DNA of 64,000 nt from Vulcanimicrobiota bacterium (GCA_963795855.1 CAWCIZ010000003.1:768001-832000); one strand, 5' to 3'. Shown: positions 7,323 to 63,882, numbered from the stretch's first letter. Program-made: numbers and translations. Notes: generated from the sequence alone by a model not told the origin.

Positions 7323-7337
7323 GCGCCATGAAGAGAA

Positions 7338-7391
7338 GGGGGCCCCGCAGCGCGGGGGCCGCGCAGTCCAGGACGGAGCGCCTTTAGAATG
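7338..7391 (+). repeat. ~54-nt leader repeat, copy 1 (ends at kamE ATG)
   Basis: GGGGGCCCC-N7-GGGGGC...AGCGCCTTT..AATG, near-identical to 9886-9939. Confidence 0.65.
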
Positions 7392-8123
7392 ACGCAGCTC
7401 GTCAAGCCCTACGGCGATACGATGAACGACGGCAAAGTGCAGCTCTCGTTCACACTGCCGGTGCAGTGGAGCGAAGCCGCCGACGAAGCCGCGCGGCAGT
7501 TGGCGGTAAAGATAGGCTTCACCGACGTTCAAGTCGTCGAAGGCCGGCCCATCGCATCCGGATTTTCATTTTTCGTCGTTTACGGCAGCACGCCGCACGC
7601 GCTCGACTTTTCGACGATCTCCGCTCCGTCGGCGAAGACGCACGCGATGTCGATGGAGGAAGTCGATGCGTTCGTCGCCGAGCGCATCGGGCGTAAACTC
7701 CGCGTCGCCGGCGCGTGCATTGGTACGGACGCGCATACCGTGGGTATCGATGCAATCCTGAACATGAAGGGCTACAAAGGCGACTACGGGCTCGAACGCT
7801 ACAAGATGTTCGAAACGTATAATCTGGGCAGTCAGGTGTCGGTCGAGGAACTCGTGCGATTTGCGAAAGAAAAACGGATCGACGCGCTGCTGGCTTCGCA
7901 GGTCGTCACGCAGAAAGGCAGCGACGTGAAAAACTTCACGGCGCTCGTCGAATTGCTCGAAGCCGAAGGTTTGCGCGATCGCATCGTGCTGTGCTGCGGC
8001 GGCCCGCGCGTGACGAACTTGATGGCGACGGAACTCGGTTATGATGCCGGTTTCGGACGCGGAACCGTCCCGAGCGAAGTTGCGGCGTTCATCGCGACGC
8101 GCATAGCCGCGCCGGCGCACTGA
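7389..8123 (+). CDS. kamE: Lysine 5,6-aminomutase beta subunit (cobalamin-binding)
   Basis: KPYGDTMNDGKVQLSFTLP dimerisation domain; DAHTVG (DxHxxG) B12 motif; NMKG PLP lysine. Confidence 0.92.
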   Translation: MTQLVKPYGDTMNDGKVQLSFTLPVQWSEAADEAARQLAVKIGFTDVQVVEGRPIASGFSFFVVYGSTPHALDFSTISAPSAKTHAMSMEEVDAFVAERIGRKLRVAGACIGTDAHTVGIDAILNMKGYKGDYGLERYKMFETYNLGSQVSVEELVRFAKEKRIDALLASQVVTQKGSDVKNFTALVELLEAEGLRDRIVLCCGGPRVTNLMATELGYDAGFGRGTVPSEVAAFIATRIAAPAH

Positions 8124-31943: not shown

Positions 31944-32096
31944 CCCCGCCTCAGCGCCCGGCTCGAATATCCTTAGCGTCACTTACAGAGTATCGTCCGG
32001 TGTATCAGAATTGTTAATTACCCGGGATGCGTGTCCTGCGCCGCAAAGGCCTGCGCGGTAGGGCAGCCTTGCTGCCCGCAAGAAAGTGATGCCGCC

Positions 32097-32399
32097 ATGT
32101 CCGCCTCTTATCTCTTGGAGGTCCTCAGCGGGCCCCTGGACGGAAAAACCTGGACGTTCGATGACGAGATCGTCATCGGCCGCGACGAAACGCTCGCCGA
32201 TGCGTGCATTACGCTGGACCGGTACATTTCGCGCCGCCACGCGCGGCTACGCGCGCAAGCCGGCACTTTGCTGCTCGCCGACCTGAAAAGCAGAAACGGC
32301 ACGCGGATCGACGACCGGCCGGTCAGTGACGAACAGCCGCTCGAAATCGGTGCTCCCTTTCAGGTGGGCCGGACGGTGCTGCGGGTTACCAGACGCTAA
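32097..32399 (+). CDS. FHA-domain protein
   Basis: IGR, ISRRHA, DLKSRNGT motifs. Confidence 0.85.
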   Translation: MSASYLLEVLSGPLDGKTWTFDDEIVIGRDETLADACITLDRYISRRHARLRAQAGTLLLADLKSRNGTRIDDRPVSDEQPLEIGAPFQVGRTVLRVTRR

Positions 32400-48530: not shown

Positions 48531-48923
48531 GTGATGTTCGACAGCCAAAACACTCAGCGTTTAACCGACCTCGACGCGCATGAAAATGCGATGGCGCTCC
48601 CCATTGCTGAAGTGGTCTCGCAGCTCGTCGAGATTTTAGGCGCCACGACGGTCGCGGTCATCGGCGGCGTCACGGAAACGCGCGCCGTCCAGCAGTGGAC
48701 CACCGGGCGAGAACCCCACCACCCGCACGTACTGCGCTTCGCCCTGCAGATAGCCACGATGATCTCTTCCAAAAACGGCAGCTGCGAGGCTGCTCGCGCT
48801 TGGTTCCAGGGAAGCAATCCTCGTCTCGAGGACGGAATCCCCGCCGTGATGCTGCGCAGCGAACCGCTGGAAAACATTCAAGCGCCGCTCATGAGAGCCG
48901 CGCGCGCTTTCGCCTCCCGCTGA
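48531..48923 (+). CDS. Xre/MbcA-like antitoxin-type DNA-binding protein
   Basis: LGATTVAVIGGV.ETRAVQQW HTH-like; ARAWFQGSNPRL..GIP C-terminal motif. Confidence 0.6.
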   Translation: MMFDSQNTQRLTDLDAHENAMALPIAEVVSQLVEILGATTVAVIGGVTETRAVQQWTTGREPHHPHVLRFALQIATMISSKNGSCEAARAWFQGSNPRLEDGIPAVMLRSEPLENIQAPLMRAARAFASR

Positions 48924-49007: not shown

Positions 49008-49661
49008 ATGGTATTACGCGCCGGCGCCGTCGTTCACGAACCCACCCTCCGGGGCGATTCCGTGCATGTCCTCGGCGACGTAGATGAATCCAATTCTTCC
49101 GAATTGGAAGAAGTGCTCGCTCGCGTCGTTCCGCTCGGCCGCAACGTCACCATCGATTTGACTCGCTGCCGATACATCGGATCGGCGGCATTGCGGCTTC
49201 TGCTCCGCGCAAGGCGTAACGCGCATGCCGATTTCGGCACGCTGGTGCGTCCCGAGAGCCTGGCCGATCGCGTGTTGCGGGTCGCAAAGCTCGACACGTT
49301 TTTGAGCGTGCAGCAGGTCGAGGTGGAGCAGGCCGACGTTTATCACTCGGACGAACCGATCCGCGTGGTTGCGCTCGAAGGCGAATGGGATCTTTCCCGC
49401 GGCGCCGAGCTGCGCCGCAAATTGGATCGCGCGAGCCGCGATCCGCGCGTCGTGCTGGATCTTTCGGGTATGCAACTGATCGACTCCAATTGCATGGCGA
49501 TGATCGTCCGCATGCGAACGCAGCGCGTGGCAAAGGGATATCCGTCGGCACCGCTGGTCATTCCGCACCGCGGCGTACGAAAACTCTTCACCATTTCCGG
49601 TTTAGCCCAGTTGTGGAGCATCTTCGATACGCTCGATGAGGCATTTGCGGCACTGCAATAA
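49008..49661 (+). CDS. Tandem STAS-domain anti-sigma-factor antagonist
   Basis: Two STAS units: GDVD..IDLTRCRYIGSAAL and GEWD..LDLSGMQLIDSNCM. Confidence 0.8.
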   Translation: MVLRAGAVVHEPTLRGDSVHVLGDVDESNSSELEEVLARVVPLGRNVTIDLTRCRYIGSAALRLLLRARRNAHADFGTLVRPESLADRVLRVAKLDTFLSVQQVEVEQADVYHSDEPIRVVALEGEWDLSRGAELRRKLDRASRDPRVVLDLSGMQLIDSNCMAMIVRMRTQRVAKGYPSAPLVIPHRGVRKLFTISGLAQLWSIFDTLDEAFAALQ

Positions 49662-49714: not shown

Positions 49715-49933
49715 ATGTTCGACGTAGCCGGACCCCTGGCAAATGCGCTCGCTCTTTCGCGCAACGGTTTAGCCGACGCCGCAACCGGCACCGCTCGCGC
49801 GCAGACGCCGTACGGTTCGCCTCGCAGCGATGCCGCGATGGCCGGCGCTGCGGAACAAGCGATCTTTCAGGAAGCGCTGCTCGACGCGCTGCACGCCCGC
49901 CTTGCCGAAATCAAGAATGCCGCACATGGATAG
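49715..49933 (+). CDS. Minimal FlgB-like proximal rod protein (tentative)
   Basis: 72-aa helical ORF at the flgB position before flgC; DAAMA..AEQAIFQEALL C-terminal helix. Confidence 0.45.
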   Translation: MFDVAGPLANALALSRNGLADAATGTARAQTPYGSPRSDAAMAGAAEQAIFQEALLDALHARLAEIKNAAHG

Positions 49934-50261
49934 CCTCGGGTTATTGAAAACCGCGGCTTCCGGCATGGATGCGCAGCGCGCCGTCCTCGATATCGAGGCG
50001 CGCAACGTCGCCGCTGCCCAGGCCGCAGGGCCCAAAGGTTCGCCGGAGCGGCTCGTGCCCGACTTTCGCGTCGTGGAAAACGACGGCGACGCGCCGCAAG
50101 TTCTGGTTTCCGGATCGCACGTGCAGCGCGGATCGAGTGTCGACGTCATTACGGAAATGGTGTCGGTTCTGAACGCCGCGCGGGCCTACGAAGCCAACGC
50201 GTCCGTGTTCGACATCGGCAAACGTTTGGCCGAACGCACCATCGACATGGGCAAACTATGA
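49926..50261 (+). CDS. flgC: Basal-body rod protein FlgC (short)
   Basis: AASGMDAQR...NVA and VDVITEMVSVLNAARAYEAN. Confidence 0.85.
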   Translation: MDSLGLLKTAASGMDAQRAVLDIEARNVAAAQAAGPKGSPERLVPDFRVVENDGDAPQVLVSGSHVQRGSSVDVITEMVSVLNAARAYEANASVFDIGKRLAERTIDMGKL

Positions 50262-50527
50262 AGGTCGAAGTTCTCGTGCCGGACGTCCCCTTTGAAACCG
50301 AACGTCGCGCGCCTGCGGGCAATGCGGTGTTCGGTAAGGTGCTCGACGATGTGGCCGCGGTGCTGGATAAGGCGGACGCCGCGGAAAACGCGTTCGCGGC
50401 GGGATCGGGCGATCTGCAAAATGCGGTGTACGAACGCGCGCGTGCGGACGTCGCGCTTTCGGTCGCGACTGCGGCTGCGGGGCGTACTGCACAGGCGCTT
50501 GAGTCGATTCTGAACATGCAGGTATAA
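50258..50527 (+). CDS. fliE: Hook-basal body protein FliE
   Basis: F.KVLDDV, GSGDLQ, RADVAL, ESILNMQV C-terminus. Confidence 0.8.
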   Translation: MKVEVLVPDVPFETERRAPAGNAVFGKVLDDVAAVLDKADAAENAFAAGSGDLQNAVYERARADVALSVATAAAGRTAQALESILNMQV

Positions 50528-50530
50528 AGC

Positions 50531-51995
50531 GTGGACGTTCTCGCCGTTCTCGCGCGTTGGAACTCACTGCCCGCGCGGACTCGCGCTATTGCTTCGTTTG
50601 CGTTCGCCGCGGCTGCCGCAGTTTCGATCCTTGCGGGCATCGTAACGCATCCGCAGCGTTCGGCGCTGTTCGCGAGCGCGTTGCACCCCGAGCAGGCTCT
50701 CCGAAGTTGAAGAACGGCTCGCGAGCTGGAACGTCGCATTCACGCCGGTCGCGGACAACGTGCTCGTCCAAACGGGACGGCGGAACGATCTGCTTCTGCG
50801 CCTTTCGATGGCGGGCGTGCCCCACGCGCACATCGACGCCTCTGCGGACGTTCTGGGAAAACTCGGCGCGCTTACGCCGCAAGCGGTCATCGACGCGCAA
50901 GCGCGCGACGGTCTCGCCGGAGACATCGAATTGGGGCTGCGCGGAATTCAAGGAGTGGAAGACGCGCGCGTGATCGTGGCGCCGGCGAAACCGGCATACT
51001 TCGCAGACGACGGTTCACGCGATGCTAGTGCCAGCGTACGGCTGCAGCTCGCGCCGAACTCGCGGCTCTCGGCGGACGCGGTGAACGGCATTCGCTCCTT
51101 CGTCGCCGCAAGCGTGCCCGGGCTGGACGAGCGCCGCGTCACGATCGTGGACGATCGCGGCGTCGCGCTGGGGGACGGTTCCACCCAGGATGACGCGGGC
51201 GATATGCAGCGTTCTCTTCAAACCGCGCTCGACGCGGCGCTCGGCGCGGGAACGTCAATCGTTCGCGTGCACGTCGAATACGACCGTCGCGCGATTACGA
51301 GCAAAGACGTACGGCGCGCTCCGCTTTCGCCGCTGCCGATTAGCGCGACCATGCAGGACGAACGCTACGACGCTGAGGGCAAACGCTACGACCGGTCGGA
51401 CCAGCAACTCGATCGCGGAAGCGAAACGCGCGAGGTGGCATCGTCCGCCGCGCCGGGACGCATTGCGCGCATTTCCGCAGCGGTCTTCGTGGACGCCGCG
51501 CACGGCATCGATCTGGAACAAGTGCGCGAACTCGCAACTGCGGCGCTTGGGCTGGATCCGCACCGCGGCGATACGATCGAGGTTGCCGCGATCGCCTTTG
51601 CACGGGTACCTGCGGTGCGCAAGGACGGCTGGTGGCTGGCATACGGCGCAATCGTACCGCTCCTTCCAACGCTTGCCATCGCCATTGCGGCACTGGTTGC
51701 ACTGAGTTGGGCTCACGGGCCGCTCACATCGCTGATACGAACGATCGCAGAGCGCGCAAGCATTACGCGCGCGGCGCAAGCCGCACAAGGAATTCCGGCG
51801 GCGCGCGTTCGGGGAGCGCTTGCGAACGAACCGCCGCACGCCGCCGCGGCAATCATCAGTGCGCTGCCGGCTGCTACAGCCGCCGCGGTTCTCGATATGT
51901 ATCCGGAACACGAGCGGGCGGCGATTATCCGACGCATGCAGCGGCCTGCATCGCCGCTGCTGTCCGACGCGGAGAGCTTCATTGCCAATGCCTGA
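50531..51995 (+). CDS. fliF: MS-ring FliF-like protein fused to a FliG middle-domain-like C-terminus; frameshift ~50696
   Basis: N-terminal TM, LAGDIELGL..IQGVEDARV, ASASVRL, FVAASVPGL..VTIVD, second TM, then EPPHAAAAIISALP. Confidence 0.8.
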
Positions 51996-52476
51996 AAACT
52001 TTCGCACCTTAGCCGAATTGCTGGGGCCCGCTCCATCGGAACGCGTTGCCGATTCACCGTGCGATGAGGATGACGCAATCGCCGATTGCGGCACCGAAGA
52101 TACGGCCGTCTGGGGTGAGGAAATGGCCGAGCTGGCGCGAGAGGTGCGGCTGTTTCGCGCGCACGTCGCGGAAGCAGTCGACGCGGCGTTGGAAACGCTG
52201 CTCGCCGATATCGCCGCCGAGGTTCTGGCACGCGAATTGCTGTTGGCACCGGTAGACGTTCAGCAAATCGTCGAGCGCGCGGTTCGGCGTTTCGACGGTG
52301 AACGAACGCTTCGCATACGCGTGCATCCCGATGAGGTGCAACGGGTTGAATCCGAGGTACCGGTCATTGCGGATTCGACTCTGCGCCGTGGTGACGCTGC
52401 GATCGAGTTATGCAACGGCAGCGTCGACGTCTCGCTCGGCGTGCGGCTCGAAGCGGTGCTGCGCGCAAACTCGTGA
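51988..52476 (+). CDS. fliH: FliH/SctL-like stator of export ATPase (short)
   Basis: IAAEVLAREL, IRVHPDE, DSTLRRGD...GSVD. Confidence 0.75.
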   Translation: MPENFRTLAELLGPAPSERVADSPCDEDDAIADCGTEDTAVWGEEMAELAREVRLFRAHVAEAVDAALETLLADIAAEVLARELLLAPVDVQQIVERAVRRFDGERTLRIRVHPDEVQRVESEVPVIADSTLRRGDAAIELCNGSVDVSLGVRLEAVLRANS

Positions 52477-53705
52477 TTGCGCGCGGAACGGTGCTCGGCG
52501 CTGCCGGTGGTCTCGTGTCGGCTCGGCTTCCGGGCGCGGTCGTGGGCGCAGGCGTACGACTTCGCACTTCAAGCGGCAGCGTTGCCGGCATCGTAACCGC
52601 GCTGCGAAGCGAACGAACGTTGATTGCCGCATACGATGCACTCGAAGGCCTTCGCGTCGGCGACGACGTGTATGCGCATCCCACGGCACTGATGATGCCG
52701 CTCGGTATGCCGATCCTCGGCCGCGCGATCGACGCCGCAGGCACGCCTTTGGACGGCGGTCCGCCGATACGCGGACGCGCGACGAGCGCTGCGCTCCATG
52801 CGCCCGAACCATCGCAACGCAAAGCAGTTCGCACGGCCTTCTGGACCGGGATCCGCACGGTCGATGCGCTGCTTACCGTCGGGCGCGGAGCGCGCATCGG
52901 CATCTTCGGACCGCCGGGTTGCGGTAAATCGACGCTGCTGCACTCGCTGATTCACGCTTCCGGAGCCGACGCCGTCGTCGTCGGTTTGGTCGGCGAGCGC
53001 GGACGCGAAGCGGAGGAGTGGGTGCGCGTGTGTCCGCCGCACGCATGCGTCGTCTGCGCCACCAGCGATCGCAGTCCTGCGCAGCGCATCCATGCGGCGC
53101 GCGTCGCGATGGCGCAAGCCCACGCGCTGCGCTCGCGGGGTTTACACGTCCTGCTCGTTCTCGATAGCCTTGCGCGGTATGCTGCCGCGCTGCGCGAAGT
53201 CGCATTGGCTTGCGGCGAAAGCGTCGGCCGAGCGGGCTATCCGGCAAGCGTCTTTGCCGAACTCGCGCGTTTCCTTGAAGTGGCGGGCGCGTGCAAGCGC
53301 GGTTCGATTACGCTGGTGGGAACCGTGCTCTCCGACGGTGACGAGCGCGATCCGGTCAGCGACGCCGCGCGCTCGCTGCTCGACGGGCACATCGCGCTTT
53401 CACCGAAGCTCGCGCATGCCGGACGCTTTCCCGCAATCGATCTGCTCGCGAGCGCCAGCCGGACGATGGGCGAGATTGCGGACCCGGTGCATCTCGAGCA
53501 CGCGAGCGCGGTTCGCCGCGCCGTGTCGGTGCTGGCGCAGAGCGAGGACGCGCGCAGCCTGGGCATCGCCCCGACCGACGCGTTCGCCGTCCGCGCCATC
53601 GCCGCGGAACCCTACATCGACCGGCTGCTCCGCCAAGGCAAGCTGCCGTCCTCGCCCGCACAGACGCTATCGGCGCTCGCCGCCGTTGCCGATATCTTGA
53701 GGTAA
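52473..53705 (+). CDS. fliI: Flagellar/T3SS export ATPase
   Basis: TGIRTVD, GPPGCGKST, GERGRE, DSLARYA, LLDGHI.LS, FPAID. Confidence 0.9.
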   Translation: MIARGTVLGAAGGLVSARLPGAVVGAGVRLRTSSGSVAGIVTALRSERTLIAAYDALEGLRVGDDVYAHPTALMMPLGMPILGRAIDAAGTPLDGGPPIRGRATSAALHAPEPSQRKAVRTAFWTGIRTVDALLTVGRGARIGIFGPPGCGKSTLLHSLIHASGADAVVVGLVGERGREAEEWVRVCPPHACVVCATSDRSPAQRIHAARVAMAQAHALRSRGLHVLLVLDSLARYAAALREVALACGESVGRAGYPASVFAELARFLEVAGACKRGSITLVGTVLSDGDERDPVSDAARSLLDGHIALSPKLAHAGRFPAIDLLASASRTMGEIADPVHLEHASAVRRAVSVLAQSEDARSLGIAPTDAFAVRAIAAEPYIDRLLRQGKLPSSPAQTLSALAAVADILR

Positions 53706-53708
53706 GCC

Positions 53709-54260
53709 ATGGACATCAGCACGGATATCGCCGCCGTTCGCCAGCGCATCGCCGAAATTACCGGACAAAGCCTCCTGCCCGCTCCGCCGGTTCAACCGTC
53801 CGGCTCTTTTGCTTCGATGGTGTCGGCTGCGATGAACCCGGAGTCCGTCGCAGGACCGGCTCCCGTTCCACCGCAGCGCATCGCACAGCTCGTGGGCGCA
53901 AATGCGAACGCCTGGGGCGTCGACCCCGCGCTTGTAAAGGCCATCATCGCAAACGAGTCGGGATTCGACGCAAACGCCACGTCGAAGACCGGCGCGCAGG
54001 GCCTGATGCAGCTCGAGCCGGGGACCGCCGCCGGCCTGGGGGTTGCAAACGCTTACGATCCGGCGGAAAATATTTCGGGCGGGACGCGTTACATGAGAGG
54101 CCTTCTGGATCGTTTCCATGGTGATCTGCGCCTGGCAATTGCCGCCTACAATGCGGGGCCGGCGGCAGTGGAGAAGTATGGCGGAGTTCCACCCTATGCC
54201 GAAACGCAGGCCTACGTCGACAACGTACTCGACAGTTATCAGCGGTACAAGACGCAGTAG
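53709..54260 (+). CDS. Lytic transglycosylase (SLT domain)
   Basis: [32 protein letters not shown]. Confidence 0.9.
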
Positions 54261-55813
54261 CATCATACTGCTGCTGGCTGCAGCTCTCGCACTTCCCGCA
54301 ATTACCGCGCGCGCCCAGGCGCAGTCACTTTCCACGGTGCTCGACGCGCGTAAAACCGCGCTCGCCGCGATGCACGTGCACCAGCCCAGGAGCCTCGAGG
54401 TCATCGGCATCGTTACCGGCGGCGGCTTGACGGGCGAATTTCATACTTGGCAAACCGCGGACGGCAAAGCGCGCTTCGAAGAAGATTACGGGGTGCGCAA
54501 AGAGACGACGCTGCGCATCGGACGCAAAGAATATGTCGTGAACGAAAGCGACGACGTGCGCCAGTCTGCATGGGCTACTGCTGCAGCGGCAGCTGACCGA
54601 CGATTTCGTGGACGACGACCGCTTCGTCACTCAGCCGCAATACGACTCGTACATCGGACAAAAGCGCCTTCCGGATGGGCGTTCGGTCTTCGAACTCGTC
54701 GTCGCGCCGCCCGGCGGCCAGCCGGAAACGGTCGATTTGGACGTGAAGACGCTGATGATCGATCGCGTCAGTTACGACGAAGAAGACGGAATCTCGACGC
54801 AGGATTATTACGGCTATAGGCACTTCGACGGCATCGTAATGGCCGAGCGCGAAACGGATTCGAACGGCGATCATGCCTACGACGTCACGCGGATTGCAAA
54901 CAAGGTCTACGTCGATCGGCCGATTGCGTCTTCGTTGTTCGAAGTTCCCCAAGGCGCGGTGGTGCAGAACGACAAGCCGATTACGGTCCCGCTCATCGAG
55001 CGCCAAGGCCATTATTACACGATCGTTCGCATCGGAACGCACGATTACACGTTCTTGGTCGATACGGGAGCGCAGTCTATCGTGCTCGATTCCCACGTCG
55101 CTTCGCAATTGGGTCTGGAGACCGAAGGGCATCTCGAGGTGTCCGGCGTGCAGCGAGTCGGCGGTATGGGCATAACGCCGCTCAAAAGTCTGCAAATCGG
55201 CGGCGCCACGCTGCCGGTGCACGTGGCGACCGTCATCGATCTGCACGGCGTCACCGGCACGTTCGACGCCGACGGCGTGCTCGGATATCCGTTTTTCGCG
55301 GCGGCGGAAGTGACGATCGATCCCGTGGCAAAGACGATGACGTTCGGGAAACCCGGCGCACTGCAGGTAAAAGGTGAGCCGATTGTGGTCGACGCCGACC
55401 GGCAACTCATCGAAGTGGACGGGAAAGTGAACGGCGCGCAAGGGCGTTTTGTGATCGACACCGGCAACAGCACCGAACTCTTGCTGTTCCAGCCGTTCCT
55501 GCACTCGCATCCGTACCTGGTGCAATTCGGCGACCGGCATTTTGCGAACGACTACGGCGTGGGCGGCGAGGTTCGCGCCGTATCCGCGATCATCGACGAA
55601 CTCGACGTCGGGAATTATCGTCTCTACAACAGAAACGTCAGCCTCATGCTGAGCGATCAAGGCGCGTTTGCCGACCGGTTCGACGCCGGCAACATCGGTA
55701 TGGGCGTGCTGCAAAACTTCATCGTGACGTTCGATCTCGCGAACGCGCAAATGTACCTCGAACGCGACGCTGCTTTCGACGACGGACGCTATCGCGCTCG
55801 CCTCGATCACTAA
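54196..55813 (+). CDS. Secreted twin-domain retropepsin-like aspartyl protease; frameshift ~54565; start uncertain
   Basis: Signal peptide [29 protein letters not shown] and [14 protein letters not shown] and GNIG flap motifs. Confidence 0.78.
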
Positions 55814-55873
55814 GACACCGCTCCGCAATAATTCCGAAGCAGCCTCATCACGCGGCGCTCCTAGCGTAAGTGC

Positions 55874-56426
55874 ATGACGATTACGGAGCAGTTGCAGTTC
55901 AGCGTTCTCACGGCGCCCGTCGCTACACTCGACAGACGCGTGCTCTCGCAGGCTTGGTATTCCGCGCTCTATCCCAGCGGCGCTTCACGGGCCGAAAAGT
56001 CGCCGCAACCTCCGAAAGCGCAAGAGCGTCCCGCACCTGCCCCGCGCGCTCGTGAACGAAAGTCACGCGCGCGTTTGGACGAGCGGTTCCTGCGCTCCGC
56101 ATTCGGCCGAGCCGGCAAAAGCATCGAACCGCTCGGGGTTTGCTCCGCTCGATCGGCGCGCGCCGCGATCGCCGCTCGCACGCAAGATCGAACGCACGCT
56201 GCTGCATCCGCGCGCGTCGTCGAGAAAAACATCGTTTACTATCCATGCATCGCACGGCCGGATTCATGTGTTGCTGCAGAACCGGCCGCGCGGTCTGAAA
56301 CTCATCGCCATTTGCCCGCCGAATGCGCGTTCGTACGTCGCGGCGGCGCTCGCTCAGGCGCGTTACGCGCTCGCGCTGCGAGGCATGGCGCTCGATGCGG
56401 ACGTGCGCGCGGAGATGCCATGCTGA
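55874..56426 (+). CDS. Short FliK/SctP-like length-control protein (tentative); frameshift ~56090-56130
   Basis: Pro/Ala/Arg-rich linker then GRIHVLL..LKLIAIC...AAALAQARYALALRGMAL resembling FliK C-domain; lies just before hook/rod gene. Confidence 0.5.
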
Positions 56427-57139
56427 TTTCGAACGCGGCGTCGCGGGCGCTGGATGAGATCGCCGTGCGGGAACGCGACGTGCTGCAGGCGTTCGCGCCG
56501 GGCGCAATACCGGAACGCGCAGACGTCTCCGCGCCGCCGTCGTCGCAACCGGTGCTCGATCCGTTGTCCGCCGCACCACCGGCAGATGCTTATTTCATCA
56601 CGACGGACGATCGCGGGCGCACGCTTTTCACGCGCGACGGTCAGTTCAGCATAGAGAACGGAACGCTCGTCGATCGCCAAGGCCATCCGGTGCTCGGTTA
56701 CGCGCACGATGGAGCGCCTCTGCAACCGCTGCAAGTCGATCCGGTCGACGCTTCGCTCGGCTTTTCGACTAACGCGGCGCTGCAGCCCGACGGAGCCCTC
56801 ACGTACGAGCGAAGCACGATCGATCCCCGAAACGGCCGAAGCGAACTGGTGCGAGCGATCGCGGGGCGGCTCGCGCTGGCACGGTTCGTGCCGGGAACCA
56901 AACTCGCGACGGTCGACGCGCAACATGCAGCCGCGCCAACCGGAATCGCCCCGCACATCGGACGCGCGGCCGACGGCAACTTCGGCGCAATTACGCCCTT
57001 CGCTGCGCAGCGCAGCGGCATTGACATCGACGCGGGTTTGGAGCGTTTGCAGGAAGCGTATCTTGCGCTCGATGCGATTCGCGCTGCCGGCAAAGCGCAA
57101 GGCGGAGTTCAGAAAACCGCGATGGATTTGCTGAAGTGA
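56420..57139 (+). CDS. FlgE/FlgF/FlgG-family rod/hook protein (degenerate)
   Basis: YFIT..GRTLFTRDGQFSI..GTLVDRQGHPVLG; C-terminal SGIDIDAGL..LQEAY helix. Confidence 0.75.
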   Translation: MLISNAASRALDEIAVRERDVLQAFAPGAIPERADVSAPPSSQPVLDPLSAAPPADAYFITTDDRGRTLFTRDGQFSIENGTLVDRQGHPVLGYAHDGAPLQPLQVDPVDASLGFSTNAALQPDGALTYERSTIDPRNGRSELVRAIAGRLALARFVPGTKLATVDAQHAAAPTGIAPHIGRAADGNFGAITPFAAQRSGIDIDAGLERLQEAYLALDAIRAAGKAQGGVQKTAMDLLK

Positions 57140-57894
57140 CGGTTCTCGGATTCGAACGCCAAAGCGAAACGATCGCGGGGCGGCGGATTCGGCGCGCGCG
57201 CTTCGAGCGACGGTCTACGCTTCCGGTGTCCGCGGCATGCCTGGTCGCAAACGGCGTGCGTGAAACGCTTGGCGCGCTGCTCGCGACGCCCGTTTCGTTA
57301 CGGCTGCTCGAGCCGGCAATCCCCGATCCGGCGGCGTGGCGCGCGATTTGCGACGGCGCGCAACTCTACACCGCGCGCGGATCCAATTGCGACGCGGCGT
57401 TCGTGCTGCGCCCGCGCGACGCGGTCGCGCTCGCCGGCACCGCTTTTGGCGAAGAGCCCAACGATTCGCGGCAGTTGTCCGCGGTCGAACAAGAGGTGCT
57501 CGTCCGCATGCTGCAAGGGCTCGCGACCTGCTTGGCTCCGGTTTGCGGCCGCGATCTTCAGCCGCTCGAACGCATTCTTGACATAAACGGATTCACGACC
57601 TATTTCGAGCTGCTGCTCGAACGGCCGGCGTCTGCGCGGATCGGCGTTGCGCTCTCGCGGGATCCGGTTTCGCGAGGCGCCGGAAACCTGCGCATCGAGG
57701 ACCTGCTGCAGGTCGAAATCGAGGTTTCCGTGCAATTCGCGTCGGGCGCCCTTCCGGCCGCCGCATTTCTGGACTTACGCCCCGGGACCGACGTGCCGAT
57801 GAAAACAAGGGTAGGGGAACCGGGCCTGCTCAAACTTGGCGGCGCCGTGCTTGCCCGCGGTGAATGCGGAGTCTCGGCGACCGAAGCGCACTGA
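57136..57894 (+). CDS. FliM-like C-ring protein with C-terminal SpoA domain (possible indel near end)
   Basis: RQLSAVEQEVL, FLDLRPG.DV, VLARGECG. Confidence 0.65.
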   Translation: MTVLGFERQSETIAGRRIRRARFERRSTLPVSAACLVANGVRETLGALLATPVSLRLLEPAIPDPAAWRAICDGAQLYTARGSNCDAAFVLRPRDAVALAGTAFGEEPNDSRQLSAVEQEVLVRMLQGLATCLAPVCGRDLQPLERILDINGFTTYFELLLERPASARIGVALSRDPVSRGAGNLRIEDLLQVEIEVSVQFASGALPAAAFLDLRPGTDVPMKTRVGEPGLLKLGGAVLARGECGVSATEAH

Positions 57895-57930
57895 TCGTGA
57901 CTGCGGTCCGGTAAAGGATACGATACGAGG

Positions 57931-58209
57931 ATGATGGCCGAACAAAAGAAACCGATGGTTGCGGATCAGCAAAACTTGGATTTGCTGATGAATGTGTCGC
58001 TCGAGGTGACGGCGGAGCTGGGCAAATGCAAATTGTCGGTGTCGGACATACTCAAACTCGGTACCGGCTCGATCGTTGAACTCGAGCGTCTTGCCGGCGG
58101 CCCCGTCGATCTGCTCGTGAACAGCAAACTCGTCGCGCGCGGCGAAGTGGTCGCCATCGACGAGAATTTCGGTGTCCGCGTCACGGAGCTGATCCAGAAG
58201 CCGACGTAG
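57931..58209 (+). CDS. fliN: C-ring protein FliN
   Basis: [37 protein letters not shown]. Confidence 0.92.
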
Positions 58210-58251
58210 CGCCCTCACGTTCCGGCAACATCCGCGCGCTACCGTGGCGTA

Positions 58252-58908
58252 ATGGATGGACTGCTTGCCATTGCAAACCACGCTCGCGCCACGCTGCCGC
58301 TCGACACGCTCGCCGCGCTCACCATCTTATCGGTCGCACCGTTTTTGCTCGTCATGTGTACGTCGTTCGTGCGCATCGTCGTCGTGCTCTCGCTCGTGCG
58401 TTCCGCAATCGGCGCCGCGGCGCTGCCGCCCAATACCGTTTTAACCGGTCTCGCGCTCGTTCTCACACTCGTCATCATGTCGCCCACGCTCACGCGCATC
58501 TCGAATGAAGCGGTGCAGCCGTACTCCCAAGGCCGCATCACGCAATCGCAGTTCATCGACCGTGCCGCCGGGCCGCTGCGCGCGTTCATGCTGCGTCAAA
58601 CTCGCGCGGCGGATATCGACCTTTTCGAGCGCGTCGCGCACGGCACGCCGGGGCCGTACGGCAAAACGCCGATGCTCGTTTTGGTTCCTGCGTTCGTCGT
58701 GGGAGAACTGCGCGACGGATTCGCGATCGGATTCGCGCTCTATCTGCCTTTCGTCGCGATCGATCTGGCCGTTGCGTCGATCTTGATGGGCCTCGGGATG
58801 TTCATGCTCAGCCCGCCCGTCATATCGTTGCCGGCCAAACTGCTGCTGTTCGTGATGGTCGACGGTTGGGCGCTGGTCTGCGGAGGCGTCGCCGCGAGCT
58901 TTAGATAA
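58252..58908 (+). CDS. fliP: Export gate protein FliP/SctR
   Basis: MCTSFVRIVVVL, PPNTVL, PAFVVGEL, YLPFVAIDL, LGMFMLSP, KLLLFVMVDGW. Confidence 0.92.
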   Translation: MDGLLAIANHARATLPLDTLAALTILSVAPFLLVMCTSFVRIVVVLSLVRSAIGAAALPPNTVLTGLALVLTLVIMSPTLTRISNEAVQPYSQGRITQSQFIDRAAGPLRAFMLRQTRAADIDLFERVAHGTPGPYGKTPMLVLVPAFVVGELRDGFAIGFALYLPFVAIDLAVASILMGLGMFMLSPPVISLPAKLLLFVMVDGWALVCGGVAASFR

Positions 58909-58921
58909 GAGGTGCGCTGAC

Positions 58922-59815
58922 ATGCGCATAAGTCAGGCGCTCGCGACGCAGCGGCCGTTTTTTTCCTTCGAGTTCTTTCCGCCCAGGACCGACGAGGCGT
59001 GCGCGCATCTGCTGGAAACCGCGCGAACGCTGCGCGAATTGCGTCCGGCATTCGTTTCCATCACGTACGGTGCGGGCGGTTCCACCCGGGCGCGGACCGT
59101 CGAACTTTCCAAGCAGATACAAAGCGAGATCGGGCTCAACGTCATGGCGCACGTAACGTGCGTTGCCAGTTCCCGCTCGGACCTGCGATCGGTCTTGAAC
59201 GACCTCGAGGCGGCCGGCATCGAAAACGTTCTCGCGTTGCGTGGCGACCCGCCGCGCGAAGCGCCGGCTTCCAACACGGCGCCGGCCGCATTCGGCCACG
59301 CCGACGATCTCGTCGCGATGGTGGCGCGAAACTACCATTTCTGCATCGGCGGCGCCTGTTATCCGGAGAAGCATATCGAGGCGGTGAGTCTGGCAGACGA
59401 TCTGCAGTACCTCGTGCGTAAAGTGGATGCGGGAGCGGAATTCCTGATCACGCAGCTGTTCTTCGATAATGACAAGTATTTCGAGTTCGTCGATCGAGCG
59501 CGCCGAATGGGCATCTCTGTCCCGATTCTGCCCGGCATCATGCCGATCACGAACTACGAACAAATTCAGCGGTTCACGGCGATGTGCGGGGCGACGATTC
59601 CGCCAAAATTGCTCGCCGAATTGGAGATTCGTCGGGAAGAGCCCAAGGCGGTGGAAGAACTCGGCGTGGCTTTTGCTACACTCCAGTGCACCGATCTGCT
59701 GCGGCGCGGCGCTCCCGGCGTGCACTTTTACACCTTGAACAAATCGCCCGCAACGCGCGCAATCGTGAGCGCGCTCCTCGCAGCGACCGCGTGGAGGTCG
59801 TTCATCAACAGGTAA
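58922..59815 (+). CDS. metF: 5,10-methylenetetrahydrofolate reductase
   Basis: SFEFFPP, SITYGAGG, LALRGD, KVDAGAEFLITQLFFD, HFYTLN. Confidence 0.95.
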   Translation: MRISQALATQRPFFSFEFFPPRTDEACAHLLETARTLRELRPAFVSITYGAGGSTRARTVELSKQIQSEIGLNVMAHVTCVASSRSDLRSVLNDLEAAGIENVLALRGDPPREAPASNTAPAAFGHADDLVAMVARNYHFCIGGACYPEKHIEAVSLADDLQYLVRKVDAGAEFLITQLFFDNDKYFEFVDRARRMGISVPILPGIMPITNYEQIQRFTAMCGATIPPKLLAELEIRREEPKAVEELGVAFATLQCTDLLRRGAPGVHFYTLNKSPATRAIVSALLAATAWRSFINR

Positions 59816-59849
59816 CGTCGCGGCAACGCCGCTCCGGTAGAGTGCGGCC

Positions 59850-60116
59850 ATGGCGGCATTCGACGGGCTGTTGCGCGAAGCGCTGGTAATTGCGGCGCTG
59901 CTCTGCTTACCCGTGCTGTGCGTGGCGACGCTGGTTGGAACCGTCGTGGCCGTATTTCAGGCGGCTACGCAAGTGCAGGAGCAAACGCTCTCGCTGCTGC
60001 CAAAGCTCATCGCGGTCGGCGTTACCGTCGCCGTATTCGGCGGTTTTGCGATGCACGCGTGCGCGGCACTGTTCACGGACGTTCTCGCGCAAATCCCGGC
60101 GCTCGTCGGCGCGTGA
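59850..60116 (+). CDS. fliQ: Export gate protein FliQ/SctS
   Basis: FQAATQVQEQTLSLLPKL. Confidence 0.92.
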   Translation: MAAFDGLLREALVIAALLCLPVLCVATLVGTVVAVFQAATQVQEQTLSLLPKLIAVGVTVAVFGGFAMHACAALFTDVLAQIPALVGA

Positions 60117-60829
60117 ACGCAACCGCACTTCTGGTCTTCGCGCGTTGTGCGGGCTTTATTTTTCGCGCGCCGGGGTTTTCGCATCCCTCCGTTCCGCCGC
60201 CGGTGCGCGCGGCATTCGCGCTCGTGCTTGCACTTGCGGTCTTCCCCGCCGTACACGCCATCCGCTCGCCGGACGGCGCCGCGTTCGTTGCTGCCGTTGC
60301 AGCGGAGATTGGCATCGGCGCTGCAATCGGTTTTGCGGCGTCGGTGTTGTACGACGGCGCCTACGCAGGTGGGCGCGCGCTCGACGATTACGTCGGTATC
60401 CGCGGCAGCGTCCCGAACGCGCAACTCTACGCGGGCGCCGGTTTTGGGCGCGTCTGGTCGCTCGTCTTTACCGCGGGTTTTTTTCTGCTCGGCGGGTACC
60501 GCGTGCTGATCATCGCGTTTTGCCGAAGCTTCGAAAGCGTGCCGCCGGGCACTGCCATTTCGGCGCACGATTGGTATGCCTATGCGCTCGCGCTCCCGGC
60601 GAGCATCATCGAAGCGGCACTGCTCGTCGCCGGACCGGCGATCGCGATGGTGTTCGTGGCGCAGTTTACGCTCGGAGCGCTCACGCGCGTCATTCCCCGC
60701 TTCGCGAGCTTCACGCTGTCTTTTCCAATCGTTTTCGGCATGGCGCTGATTGCGACGATTCTGGCAGTCCCGCTGCTGTTCGCGCAAAGCGCGCTTCCGT
60801 GGCTCCGCGTTCCTTTTCTTGCGCGATAG
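60113..60829 (+). CDS. fliR: Export gate protein FliR/SctT
   Basis: FARCAG..FRAPGFS..VP..VR, EIGIG, LGALTRVIP..F.LSFP. Confidence 0.85.
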   Translation: MNATALLVFARCAGFIFRAPGFSHPSVPPPVRAAFALVLALAVFPAVHAIRSPDGAAFVAAVAAEIGIGAAIGFAASVLYDGAYAGGRALDDYVGIRGSVPNAQLYAGAGFGRVWSLVFTAGFFLLGGYRVLIIAFCRSFESVPPGTAISAHDWYAYALALPASIIEAALLVAGPAIAMVFVAQFTLGALTRVIPRFASFTLSFPIVFGMALIATILAVPLLFAQSALPWLRVPFLAR

Positions 60830-61826
60830 ATGGCCGGCGAAAAGCAATTCGAAGCGACGCACTCGCATCTCGAACGCGCCAAACGCGAGGGCGACGTCGC
60901 GCGCTCGCAGGAACTGGGCAACGTCGCCGCTTTCGCGGCCGCGTTGGGCTCGGTCGGCGTACTGATTGCGCCGCTTGCGTCGGCGGCGCGAGGCGCGCTG
61001 ATCGCAGCGAGTGCCGGGCGAGTCGACGCGGCGTCGTGCGCAACTGCGGCCGCGCTCATGCTCGTGCCGATTGCAGCAGCCGCGGCAGCCGCGCTCGGCG
61101 CGAACGTCGTGCAAAGCGGCGGTCTGCGCTTGGCTGCCGTTTCGTTCAAAACCGAACGCCTCTCGCCGGGCGAGAACCTCAAGCGCATGTTTTCTCGCGA
61201 AGTCTGCGGTTACGGCCGCGCGAGCGACGATCGCGTTCGTCTGTGCGGGAGCGGCGATCGTTCCGGCGTTTGCGGCAATTTACGCGTCCGCGCTGCACGC
61301 GGCCGGTTTGGGCGGAGCCGCAACGGCGGCGTGGAGCGGAGCGCTGCGCGCCGCAGCCGCCGCATGCGCGATAGGCGGCGTTTTTGCGTGCGCGGATTAT
61401 GGCGTGCAATTCGCGCGTTGGCGTAAGCGGCTGCGCATGTCGTTCGAAGAACTGCGGCGCGACAGCAAGGAGAACGACGGCGATCCGCTCGCGCGCAGCC
61501 GGCGGCGCGCGCTGCACCGCCAAATCGCGCGCGGTTCCCTGCAGCGCGTGAAAGATGCCGCGTTCGTGGTGACCAACCCGACGCACATCGCGATCGCTTT
61601 GGAGTACCGGCCGCCGCAAGTCCCGGTGCCGCGCGTGCTGGTGCGGGCCACAGACGACGCGGCTGCGCGCGTTCGCGATCTTGCATCGGCGTATGGCATT
61701 CCGCTCGTTGAAAACGTGGCTTTGGCGCGGCAGTTGTACGCGTCGGCGAAAGCGGGCGACTTCATTCCGCACGAAACCTACGTTGCAGTCGCGGAGATCG
61801 TCGCGGCGCTGAGCAAGACGCGGTAA
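60830..61826 (+). CDS. flhB: Export switch protein FlhB/SctU; frameshift ~61204
   Basis: EKQFEAT..AKREGDVARSQE, RMSFEELRRDSKENDGDP, NPTH autocleavage, PLVENVALAR. Confidence 0.88.
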
Positions 61827-61863
61827 CGTTGCGGCAATATCGCGGTGGGATGCTGAGGGCAAG

Positions 61864-63882
61864 ATGAATCGCGCTTCGACCTATGCTTTTGCGGCGCTGT
61901 TGCTGTGCATCGTGGCGATTCTCATCGTGCCGCTCCCGCCGTTTCTGCTCGACGTGCTGCTGGGCGTGAATGTCTTCACGTCGGCGCTGGTGTTGCTGCT
62001 GAGCGTGACGATCGAGGAGCCGCTCCAATTTTCCGCATTCGCTCCAGCCCTGCTCATCGCGACGCTTTTCCGATTGTCGCTAGACGTGTCGGCGACACGG
62101 CTGATTCTTACGCAAGGCCATATCCCGGGTGGGGCGGGCGCGATTATCCCGGCGTTCGGCGAGTTCGTCGTGCGCGGAAATCTGGTCGTCGGGCTCATCG
62201 TCTTTGCGATTCTCGTCACGATTCAGTTCATCGTCATTGCGAGCGGATCCCAGCGCGTCGCGGAGGTCGCGGCGCGCTTCACGCTCGACGCAATGCCCGG
62301 AAAGCAGATGGCGATCGATGCGGACGTCCACGCAGGCGTGCTCGATGCGGACGGTGCGCGCCGCAAGCGCGAACGCGTTCAGAAAGAAGCGGATTTCTAC
62401 GGCGCGATGGACGGCGCCGGAAAGTTCGTCAAGGGCGACGCAATCGCGGCGCTCATCATCGTGGTGCTCAACCTCACGGGCGGTGTCGCCGTCGGCGTAT
62501 TCTACCACGGCATGTCCGCCGTCGACGCGCTGCAAACGTTCGCGCTGCTCTCCATCGGAAACGCGCTCGTGACGACGCTTCCCGCGTTCCTGATCTCCAC
62601 GGCAATGGGTATGATGGTCACTCGCGTCGCCGCGGACGGTTCGCTGGGATCGGATCTGGCGTCACAACTGTTTGCGCGTCCGGAGATACTGCGTGCGGCG
62701 GGCGCGCTGCTGCTCGCGCTTGCCGCCGTTCCGGCTTTGCCGCGCCCGGTTTTCATCGTGCTGGGATTGAGCGCGTTTGCGGGTGCACATGCAGCGCAAA
62801 AACGCAAGTCGTTTACGGCGGCGCTCGCGCAGCACGAACGAGACGCTGCTAAGCGTCAAGCGATCCGCCGTCCGGAGATGGCGCTCGGGCTCGTCGGCGT
62901 CGACGCGGTCTGCATCGAAATCGGCTCTAATCTCGCGCACTTGCTTGCATCGCCGCTGGCGGACGCGCTGCTCGACCGCATCGGCGAAGTCCGCCGCGCA
63001 CTTGCAGCGGAGATCGGCATCGTGCTTCCGGGCGTGCGTCTGCGCGACGATTTGACGCGCGATCCGAACACGTATGCGATTCGCGTGCGCGACGAACTCG
63101 CCGGCGAGGGCACATTGCAACTCGATCGTATGATCGCCGTTGCGGAAGACCCAATCCTGGAGCAGATCGACGGCGAAGCGGCCTTCGAGCCCGTCTACGG
63201 ATTGCCCGCGAAATGGATCGATCCCGCGCAGCGCGAGCGCGCGTTGGAACGCGGCGCGCTCGTTTTCGACGCGATCTCGATCGTCGGATCGCACTTGGCA
63301 GAAGCCGCGCGCTCGCACGCCGGCGCGTTGCTTGGGCGTCAGGAACTTCAAACGCTGCTCGAACATTTGCGCGCGACCGTGCCGACTGTCGTGAAAGAGA
63401 TCGGAACGGAAGCGCTGCCGCTTTCCGCCGTGCAGAAGGCGTTTGCGCTCTTGCTCCGCGAGCGGATCTGGCCGCGGGATCCCGTCGCGGTCCTCGAGGC
63501 AATGATCGAAGCGGCGCCGGCGAGCCGCGATCCGCGGGATCTCGCCGAGGCGGCTCGGCGCGCGGTCGTCCCCACGCTGCTGCGGCGGCGCGGGGTCGAC
63601 GAACTCGAACCCTTGCTGCTCGATCCCCAGTTCGAGCGGAGCCTCGGCGATTCGCTGGACCCGCAGCTGGCCTCGCGCCTGCGAGACCATGCGCAAGTCT
63701 ACCTCGCGCAGATGCCGCCGAGCCGCGCTGCGCTGGTTTGCACGACGGCGGTGCGGCCGCTCATCGCCGACTTTCTGCTGCGTTCGGGGGTCAGGCTGGC
63801 GGTATACAGTTATGGCGAAATCCCCGCAGAAACTCGCCTGACCCCCGCGAGTATCCTTAAGGAAGAATCGTTGGCGGCTTAG
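61864..63882 (+). CDS. flhA: Export apparatus protein FlhA/SctV
   Basis: RVAEVAARFTLDAMPGKQMAIDAD, FYGAMDGAGKFVKGDAIA. Confidence 0.95.
   Translation: MNRASTYAFAALLLCIVAILIVPLPPFLLDVLLGVNVFTSALVLLLSVTIEEPLQFSAFAPALLIATLFRLSLDVSATRLILTQGHIPGGAGAIIPAFGEFVVRGNLVVGLIVFAILVTIQFIVIASGSQRVAEVAARFTLDAMPGKQMAIDADVHAGVLDADGARRKRERVQKEADFYGAMDGAGKFVKGDAIAALIIVVLNLTGGVAVGVFYHGMSAVDALQTFALLSIGNALVTTLPAFLISTAMGMMVTRVAADGSLGSDLASQLFARPEILRAAGALLLALAAVPALPRPVFIVLGLSAFAGAHAAQKRKSFTAALAQHERDAAKRQAIRRPEMALGLVGVDAVCIEIGSNLAHLLASPLADALLDRIGEVRRALAAEIGIVLPGVRLRDDLTRDPNTYAIRVRDELAGEGTLQLDRMIAVAEDPILEQIDGEAAFEPVYGLPAKWIDPAQRERALERGALVFDAISIVGSHLAEAARSHAGALLGRQELQTLLEHLRATVPTVVKEIGTEALPLSAVQKAFALLLRERIWPRDPVAVLEAMIEAAPASRDPRDLAEAARRAVVPTLLRRRGVDELEPLLLDPQFERSLGDSLDPQLASRLRDHAQVYLAQMPPSRAALVCTTAVRPLIADFLLRSGVRLAVYSYGEIPAETRLTPASILKEESLAA

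Follow-up and report, generated by a model that had tools for sequence, protein, structure and literature searches.

A second, reduced flagellar-type III gene set in Baltobacteraceae that is distinct from the canonical flagellum and from the sampled injectisomes

What does a bacterium do with a flagellar export core whose gene cluster encodes neither a motor nor a filament? This question is raised by a gene cluster at positions 49715-63882 of a 64,000-nt stretch of contig C3 (hereafter the window, to which all coordinates refer) of genome G000, a member of the Eremiobacterota, family Baltobacteraceae. All genes of the cluster, most of them named by profile searches with Pfam and NCBIfam, lie on the + strand, in the order FlgB-like, FlgC, FliE, FliF, FliH, FliI, a lytic transglycosylase (SLT), a protease, a mini-FliK, a 239-aa axial protein, a FliM-like protein, FliN, FliP, metF, FliQ, FliR, FlhB and FlhA. 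The export gate FliPQR/FlhB/FlhA together with FliH/FliI is complete, and is intact in relatives, while most of the proteins score below the NCBIfam flagellar cut-offs. A first-pass annotation had described the locus as a miniaturised, motor-less type III secretion cluster derived from the flagellum, and its gene list, gene sizes and location were all confirmed, including a transglycosylase and a secreted protease inside the cluster. None of the cluster open reading frames (ORFs) matched Pfam profiles for FliG_C, FliJ, FliO, FlgD, FlgH/I, FlgK/L, flagellin, MotA/B, Che proteins or a secretin, as that annotation had also stated (full-length fliG, fliJ, fliO, flgD, flgH/I, flgK/L, flagellin, motAB, chemotaxis genes and secretin). 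We call this reduced set T2 and the canonical flagellar set of the same genome T1.

The genome (3.06 Mb on 6 contigs, 62% G+C, 86% complete) matched the FHIPEP profile at two places, namely T2 (669 bits) and a copy on contig C2 (860 bits), to which the T2 FlhA is 40% identical. Contig C2 carries a full fliF-to-flhA cluster with mot and che genes, which is T1; flagellins are encoded on C1 and C6, and FlgC, FlgF, FlgG, FlgH, FlgI and FlgK on C1. In a genome-wide profile search, FliG_C, flagellin, FlgH and FlgI matched only contigs other than that of the window, and FlgH and FlgI were located solely beside the canonical rod genes on C1. Because a complete canonical flagellar and chemotaxis set is present on C2, C1 and C6, T2 is a second set, and the possibility raised in the first-pass annotation that these are the sole flagellar export genes of the genome does not hold. 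Within the T1 cluster, we also observed genes for anthranilate synthase and glutamine amidotransferase between fliI and fliK, an adenylosuccinate synthetase gene just upstream of fliF, and a Vgb_lyase-family gene between fliR and flhB.

T2 is not peculiar to this genome. The best 80 related loci were labelled Eremiobacterota or Vulcanimicrobiota, mostly 'Candidatus Baltobacteraceae', with a few carrying other labels. FlhA was matched in 97 of 101 family genomes; by hand count, T2-type FlhA (57-85% identity, whole or partial) occurs in 91 of them, T1-type FlhA (36-43% identity) in at least 46, with 22 matches unlisted, and both types together in at least 40. The profile of the 239-aa protein gave strong matches in 179 of 206 family genomes, and its matches outside the family are weak and possibly correspond to ordinary FlgF/G. 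Behind the tallies over 101 and 206 genomes are seven that carry an unpublished flag (G028, G029, G021, G100, G041, G096 and G019); these seven enter none of our other claims. Gene order, whose conservation had been named as a check, is identical in all seven relatives that we compared gene by gene, so that chance arrangement is not at issue. In a set of 55 related loci, each 15 kb or longer and six of them duplicates of records already in the set, the count is 46-55 for core genes and 39 for a short N-terminal stretch of FliF.

The conservation is also visible in substitution rates. We calculated dN/dS by the Nei-Gojobori method for 14 cluster genes and metF, with three or four family-genome pairs per gene. 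Values of dN were 0.03-0.38 against dS of 0.6-2.1, giving dN/dS of about 0.04-0.36 across the 14 cluster genes (FlhA about 0.1, FliP 0.08, FliN 0.04, the 239-aa protein about 0.2, and FliM-like and FliH about 0.3 each); the metF control gave about 0.1-0.2, which is comparable. Since the distances of the window branch equal those among its relatives, this branch is not accelerated. T2 is under purifying selection and is not decaying across the family, and the dN/dS near 1 by which the first-pass annotation would have recognised decay was not observed; none of the refuting observations named in that annotation was made.

Four single-contig genomes that are 92-99% complete (G004, G006, G015 and G024) carry T2-type FlhA only. 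Flagellin (PF00669) and FliG_C were each found in none of the four, MotB_plug in neither of the two searched (G004 and G024; MotA itself was not searched), and FlgI and FlgH in none of three (G004, G024 and G015). T2 does not depend on a flagellum, and its motor-less character, as first proposed, holds both in the cluster and in these T2-only genomes. Vulcanimicrobium alpinum, the one cultured member of the family, is reported to have no flagella and no flagellin gene, and Table S8 lists only a fliN among such genes (PMC9758169); we know this strain from that paper alone.

The composition of T2 suggests how a rotor might have been dispensed with. FliF is 479-494 aa long in 46 of 48 relatives, and its last ~60 residues are nearly invariant. 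This tail matches Pfam FliG_M (29.5 bits against a cut-off of 25) and can be aligned with the FliG of this genome over residues 150-219, where EPPH lies over EHPQ (E 0.005, low probability). T2 contains no protein uniting the N, M and C domains of FliG, and just the FliG_M segment is retained as part of FliF. In solved structures of FliG bound to FliM, it is this segment of FliG that touches FliM. We predict from these alignments that the FliG-middle motif fused to FliF serves as a dock for FliM. The FliM-like protein has both a CheC-like middle domain, by fold, and a C-terminal SpoA/FliMN_C domain, by Pfam. The best matches of its AlphaFold2 (AF2) model (pLDDT 83) are the FliM chains of the Salmonella C-ring (Foldseek E 3.6e-10), followed by FliM middle domains, and hhalign against the genome's own FliM gave E 3.5e-4 at 37% probability. 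Judged by its modelled fold, the protein is a true FliM. No CheY-P binding peptide was noticed on reading its N-terminus, for which no motif test was made.

A gene of ~180 codons is conserved in 51 of the 55 loci at the exact position of fliK. Its product is conserved at the N-terminus, is variable and of low complexity in the middle, and has a C-terminal alpha/beta domain modelled by AF2 with pLDDT >90. Among solved folds, this domain best matches 2RRL, the C-domain of FliK (Foldseek E 1.9e-4, VIA Z 7.4), followed by 5CUK, the switch domain of PscP (E 2e-3, Z 7.2), with an rmsd of 3.0 over 84 residues. On this model, the protein looks like a small FliK/SctP-type ruler-switch protein, and hereafter we call it mini-FliK. 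The 239-aa protein is encoded directly after mini-FliK and before fliM, as is FlgE in the canonical cluster. It occupies the hook (FlgE) position and not a rod position, a point on which the first-pass annotation needs correction. The statement that T2 has only one gene of the FlgE/F/G family is correct within the window and fails for the genome as a whole, in which FlgF-like and FlgG-like genes at a satellite locus ~107 kb upstream enlarge the axial set. This FlgF/FlgG pair is found in T2-only genomes too, and the satellite locus belongs to the T2 system. A FliA/WhiG-like sigma factor gene stands beside FlgF/FlgG in G000, G004 and G103, the last being a genome from another family of the phylum; the sigma scores 117-123 bits in the Baltobacteraceae, below the subfamily cut-off, and 200 bits in G103. 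Just upstream of the satellite locus there is another Vgb_lyase-family gene.

The same genome G103 provides a less reduced version of the system. It has one cluster, with the same gene order and full-size parts: FlgB of 164 aa (Flg_bb_rod), FlgC of 165, FliE of 138, FliF of 566, FliG of 366 (N, M and C domains), FliK of 324 (a Flg_hook/HpaP protein, where T2 has mini-FliK) and a D1 protein of 273. The cluster further holds FliH, FliI, FliJ, SLT, a true FliM, two FliN, FliO, FliP-R, FlhB and FlhA. Profile searches of G103 found no flagellin, MotB_plug, FlgH or FlgI. Because G103 keeps the same order with full-size parts, we place T2 of the window at the far end of a reduction series. Compared with G103, the sequences indicate that FliG survives only as part of the FliF tail, that FliJ and FliO were lost, and that FlgB, FlgC, FliE, FliH, FliK and FliM have shrunk. 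In G145, which belongs to a sister family in the same order, the whole T2 cluster is present without metF, and T1 is present as well. G103 also has a satellite locus of its own (C1:11454-15291), where FlgF, FlgG, FliA and a rod-binding FlgJ-N protein are encoded along with a second FliK-like protein of 489 aa and a small FlhB-C-like one.

Two phylogenetic analyses bear on the origin of T2. In a tree of 27 FlhA sequences (LG+G4), including six SctV, the six SctV split from all FlhA at 100/100, with T2 on the FlhA side. T2 and the two other Eremiobacterota families formed one clade (100/99), within which branching follows family, order and class; T1 formed its own clade (100/100), and T1 and T2 were sisters (80/82) beside Thermomicrobium. 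The approximately unbiased (AU) test did not reject 'T2 with SctV' (p 0.29). The second tree combined FliP, FliQ, FliR, FlhB, FlhA and FliI (20 taxa, 1946 columns). Here, T1 grouped with Thermomicrobium and Azospirillum, and T2 stood beside the injectisome branch with support of 77/80 under LG+G4 and 87 under a quick LG+C20 analysis. 'T1 sister to T2' was borderline rejected by the AU test (p 0.048), and 'T2 with T1 and Thermomicrobium' was not rejected (p 0.29). T2 and the injectisomes are both long branches in these trees, taxon sampling is thin, and the Myxococcales systems were left out. The sampled injectisome proteins (four to six systems) formed their own clade with 100% support, with T2 outside it. 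It is solid that T2 differs from T1 as well as from the sampled injectisomes, and that its age within the phylum is great. A reduction independent of the injectisome lineage is a tentative proposal: T2 lies outside the sampled injectisome clade, but its deep placement changes from the FlhA tree to the six-protein tree, and the AU tests do not settle the matter.

How does T2 compare with known systems? It has the gate, ATPase, MS-ring, FliM/FliN and rod families in common with the flagellum. The order flgB-flgC-fliE-fliF-...-fliK-hook-fliM-fliN-fliP-fliQ-fliR-flhB-flhA is also that of G103 and, from fliF to flhA, that of T1; it is the order of the Firmicutes/Thermotogae-type fla operon. It differs from the flagellum in that the T2-only genomes have neither flagellin nor the FliG torque domain, nor MotB, FlgH and FlgI where these were searched; in that the cluster has no FlgD, FlgK/L, FliJ or FliO and retains FliG as one motif on FliF; and in that FlgB, FlgC, FliH and FliK are much shorter. 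T2 would work in the manner of a flagellar export apparatus, but it lacks the filament, the rotor-stator pair and the bushing that define a flagellum. Like injectisomes, T2 is related to the flagellum, lacks motility parts and has long been conserved in one lineage, and its FliI and FlhB score slightly better against the SctN and SctU models (NCBIfam 353 bits for SctN against 347 for FliI, both below their cut-offs; 201 bits for SctU against 166 for FlhB, in an intact FlhB ortholog). Unlike injectisomes, it has FliF instead of SctJ and SctD, together with FliE, rod proteins of the FlgB/C/F/G type, and separate FliM and FliN, and no needle, translocon or secretin is encoded in its cluster. Profiles for the secretin SctC, the SctD ring and the SctF needle had no Pfam match in the ORFs of this cluster or of the G103 cluster, secretins not having been searched genome-wide. 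T2 has no secretin, SctD or needle in its cluster and is not a member of the injectisome clade, and is therefore not an injectisome by these tests.

Three precedents come nearest. The 'Myxo' non-flagellar type III secretion system (T3SS) of the Myxococcales is described as secretin-less by Abby and Rocha (2012; PMC3459982). The T2 locus is likewise without a secretin, and no Myxococcales sequence is included in our trees. In Lysobacter enzymogenes OH11, which is non-flagellated and has no flagellin, flagellar T3SS-like genes are expressed, and loss of FliI impaired the secretion of FlgD and of non-flagellar proteins, as reported in PMC7688988. Like that bacterium, the T2-only genomes keep flagellar export genes without flagellin. 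However, the OH11 set is the sole one of its genome and recently degraded, whereas T2 is an old, remodelled, paralogous set found family-wide, often beside an intact flagellum. The hook-basal bodies of Buchnera, which have no flagellin or motor, have been proposed to act as exporters. These are the eroded single set of a symbiont, whereas T2 is a dedicated second set in a free-living soil lineage. We found no description of T2 in the literature on flagella or type III secretion in Eremiobacterota, Baltobacteraceae or WPS-2, or on reduced or flagellin-less flagellar T3SS, most subscription journals being outside our reach. T2 is thus likely to be undescribed, differing from its precedents as a dedicated, remodelled paralogous set present in most family genomes searched, whose less reduced counterparts occur in other parts of the phylum.

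Based on these observations, we lean, by a small degree, towards the view that T2 is a second, reduced flagellar-type III set that builds a basal body with rod and short hook-like stub but without a motor, and exports other proteins thereafter. FliF rings would dock FliM directly through the fused FliG-middle motif, and FliM/FliN with FliH/FliI would form a static sorting platform that lacks both torque ring and stator. FliE, FlgB-like, FlgC, FlgF and FlgG would be exported through the gate, and possibly also the transglycosylase; reading its N-terminus revealed no evident signal peptide, and the enzyme could open the wall for the rod. The hook-position protein would then add a short stub whose length mini-FliK might measure, and FlhB, through its NPTH site, would flip from early to late substrates. 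Export of non-flagellar substrates is suggested by the ruler-switch protein and the FlhB NPTH site. One candidate late substrate would be an anti-sigma factor acting on the FliA-like sigma of the satellite locus. Because no L/P ring or secretin accompanies the cluster, the structure may end in the periplasm.

Several points weigh against this proposal. The machine is known here from genes alone, and the contact between FliF and FliM stands as a prediction. The fold scores of mini-FliK (Z 7.2-7.4) are moderate, in a range where coincidence is possible; Pfam Flg_hook was matched in 4 of 34 members, at best with 18.4 bits where the cut-off is 29.8, and hhalign of its profile to the G103 FliK gave E 0.24 and no alignment. 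FliJ and FliO were not found within the cluster, no outer-membrane conduit was identified, and export past the periplasm is unsupported. In addition, this copy of the cluster has five frame breaks in 14.2 kb compared with about six in the remaining 49.7 kb of the window, the cluster having been searched harder.

Other explanations were considered. T2 might be a regulatory checkpoint, in which the rod and stub are built, an anti-sigma factor is exported and the FliA/WhiG-like sigma is switched on, so that it would control genes and not deliver effectors. The sigma gene beside FlgF/FlgG, which is found in genomes without flagellum genes as well, agrees with this, as do the ruler-switch protein and the NPTH site, from which a class of late substrates follows. 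However, Pfam FlgM was matched in one of the five genomes searched, and weakly (27 bits), which is weak evidence given that FlgM is small and divergent, and the sigma scores below the subfamily cut-off in the family; we consider the checkpoint unlikely. Another explanation is a structural role without export, such as an envelope-spanning anchor or an organiser of membrane tubes, where the gate builds only its own rod. Across the 55 loci there is no candidate effector, chaperone or outer-membrane pore in or adjoining the cluster, and flagellar T3SS core proteins have been reported in non-flagellar structures and are said, in the preprint by Kaplan et al. (10.1101/2021.09.03.458937), to be involved in membrane tubes. 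The retained ruler-switch protein and FlhB cleavage site would be hard to explain if nothing followed the axial parts, and we regard this role as decidedly unlikely. An accessory set that assembles or modifies the canonical flagellum would fit the coexistence of both sets here and in many family genomes; it is contradicted by the T2-only genomes described above, none of the four having flagellin or FliG_C and none of those searched having MotB, FlgH or FlgI, and we give it hardly any credence.

The remaining explanation concerns this copy in particular. T2 in this genome could be a decaying duplicate, redundant beside the canonical flagellum, and the five breaks could be real. They lie in FliF (~50695), the protease (~54565), the 180-aa gene (55981-56106), the FliM-like gene (~57865, touching the last 13 residues) and FlhB (~61200). 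Breaks were accepted only in frames with a Pfam match or long high-identity pieces; high-GC shadow ORFs also match the same-genus genome G083. The higher break density in the cluster speaks for decay, but that density was obtained by a harder search, and credible breaks outside the cluster affect an RmlD-like gene (~3650), a thiolase (~14505), an acyl-CoA dehydrogenase (~16100), a TonB-dependent receptor (~23500), a PTS EIIC-like gene (~29884) and a small ORF (~31453). Relatives read all five broken genes in single frames. G083 is broken at other sites, namely FliF at a different place, metF and FliQ, with no break common to both genomes, and G075 has one break in metF; moreover, the dN of the window branch equals that of its relatives. 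Similarly broken relatives are few-contig assemblies with many breaks, and the present genome is 86% complete on 6 contigs. This suggests that the five breaks are probably indel errors of the assembly, and we consider decay very unlikely. Gene calls in this genome need frame-aware handling. The frame breaks, together with metF, mini-FliK, the FliF-FliG_M fusion, the satellite locus and the G103 version, had been overlooked in the first-pass annotation.

If T2 does build a motor-less exporter, what would this mean? The injectisome is the sole well-established case in which a flagellum became another machine, with the Myxococcales relatives as a possible intermediate. T2 would be a second such transition, with graded living stages within one soil phylum. 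As a tentative and rather doubtful extension, Eremiobacterota may carry a third type III machine, derived from the flagellum and separate from both flagellum and injectisome, whose stepwise reduction is preserved, from full FliG, FliJ, FliK and FliO in one family to a FliG shrunk to a FliM dock on FliF in Baltobacterales, and which exports non-flagellar proteins; on the six-protein tree, it would perhaps be the closest living relative of the injectisome stem. T2 may also be seen as a natural experiment in rotor removal, with FliG cut to a FliM-docking motif on FliF, and it offers a miniature ruler protein. The cultured V. alpinum, reported to be non-flagellated (PMC9758169), makes cryo-tomography, knock-outs and secretomes feasible. 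In addition, 'flagellar' genes in these abundant soil bacteria need not mean motility.

The features of the T2 system are listed in Table 1.

Table 1. Features of the T2 cluster and its satellite locus, with the evidence for each assignment
Feature	Position	Strand	Evidence
FlgB-like mini proximal rod protein, 72 aa	49715-49933	+	Position and motif; 80-aa ORF from 49691
FlgC, shortened, 111 aa	49926-50261	+	Pfam Flg_bbr_C 31 bits, above cut-off
FliE, 89 aa	50258-50527	+	Pfam FliE 30.6 bits; NCBIfam fliE 30.2, cut-off 30
FliF MS-ring protein with C-terminal FliG-middle (ARM) motif	50531-51995	+	Pfam YscJ_FliF, YscJ_FliF_C, FliG_M
FliH, shortened, 162 aa	51988-52476	+	Pfam FliH 44 bits
FliI/SctN-type export ATPase, 410 aa	52473-53705	+	Pfam ATP-synt_ab 211 bits
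SLT-family lytic transglycosylase, 183 aa	53709-54260	+	Pfam SLT 98 bits
Secreted double retropepsin-like aspartic protease, ~530 aa	~54196-55813	+	Pfam Asp_protease_2, two stretches
Putative mini FliK/SctP-like ruler/substrate-switch protein, ~180 aa	55874-56426	+	AF2 fold and position
FlgE/F/G-family axial protein, 239 aa	56420-57139	+	Pfam LlgE_F_G_D1 29 bits; alignment
FliM-like switch/platform protein, ~259 aa	57136-57914	+	Pfam FliMN_C alone; AF2 fold
FliN, 92 aa	57931-58209	+	Pfam FliMN_C 86 bits; NCBIfam fliN 97.9, above cut-off 84
FliP export-gate protein, 218 aa	58252-58908	+	Pfam 246 bits; NCBIfam 233.6, above cut-off 217
metF, methylenetetrahydrofolate reductase, complete	58922-59815	+	Pfam MTHFR 317 bits; NCBIfam equivalog 342, above cut-off
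FliQ, 88 aa	59850-60116	+	NCBIfam fliQ 69.9 bits, below cut-off 88.9; in 51/55 loci
FliR, 238 aa	60113-60829	+	Pfam Bac_export_1 113 bits
FlhB with NPTH autocleavage motif	60830-61826	+	Pfam Bac_export_2, split across two frames
FlhA, 672 aa, divergent paralog of canonical FlhA	61864-63882	+	Pfam FHIPEP 669 bits
Satellite: FlgF-like, FlgG-like, FliA/WhiG-like sigma	C3:709834-712845 (~107 kb upstream, outside the window)		Profile matches

Some assignments need comment. The FlgB-like ORF had no Pfam or NCBIfam match, and its name is given because of its position and a reading of its motif; it occurs at the same place, before flgC, in 43 of the 55 related loci (tblastn), and its length of 72 aa is counted from the Met to which relatives align. 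FlgC reached 52 bits with NCBIfam, below the cut-off of 102, and is present in 54 of the 55 loci. The T2 FlhA scored 633 bits with the NCBIfam FlhA model, below the cut-off of 772. FlhB has one reading frame in relatives, and NPTH was read in the translated C-terminal part. The transglycosylase matched the NCBIfam model of the flagellar assembly lytic transglycosylase BB0259 (E 5e-20, below cut-off); it is present in 48 of the 55 loci and at the same place in the G103 cluster. The aspartic protease, which has a signal-peptide-like N-terminus in the upstream frame and is found in just 36 of the 55 loci, is an accessory gene. By tblastn, metF is the sole copy in the genome, and it lies between fliP and fliQ in all 51 loci that have both, whereas the sister family has no such insert. 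A housekeeping gene locked in the operon in this way may force the operon to be transcribed.

We rejected a single 421-aa gene at 55874-57139, since it represents two genes that a frame break has joined in this copy. Immediately before the cluster are a gene with two STAS domains of the anti-sigma antagonist type (49008-49661) and a 130-aa ORF of no family (48531-48923). Both were rejected as parts of the cluster; each occurs in 3 of the 55 loci, and they are genus-level neighbours. A 140-aa FHA-domain protein at 31977-32396, which also matches the Yop-YscD cytoplasmic-domain family, is encoded among pantothenate genes at a distance of 18 kb and probably has no connection with the cluster. Elsewhere in the window, at 5727-8120, the alpha subunit and the B12-binding beta subunit of D-lysine 5,6-aminomutase are encoded beside sugar-nucleotide epimerase/dehydratase genes.

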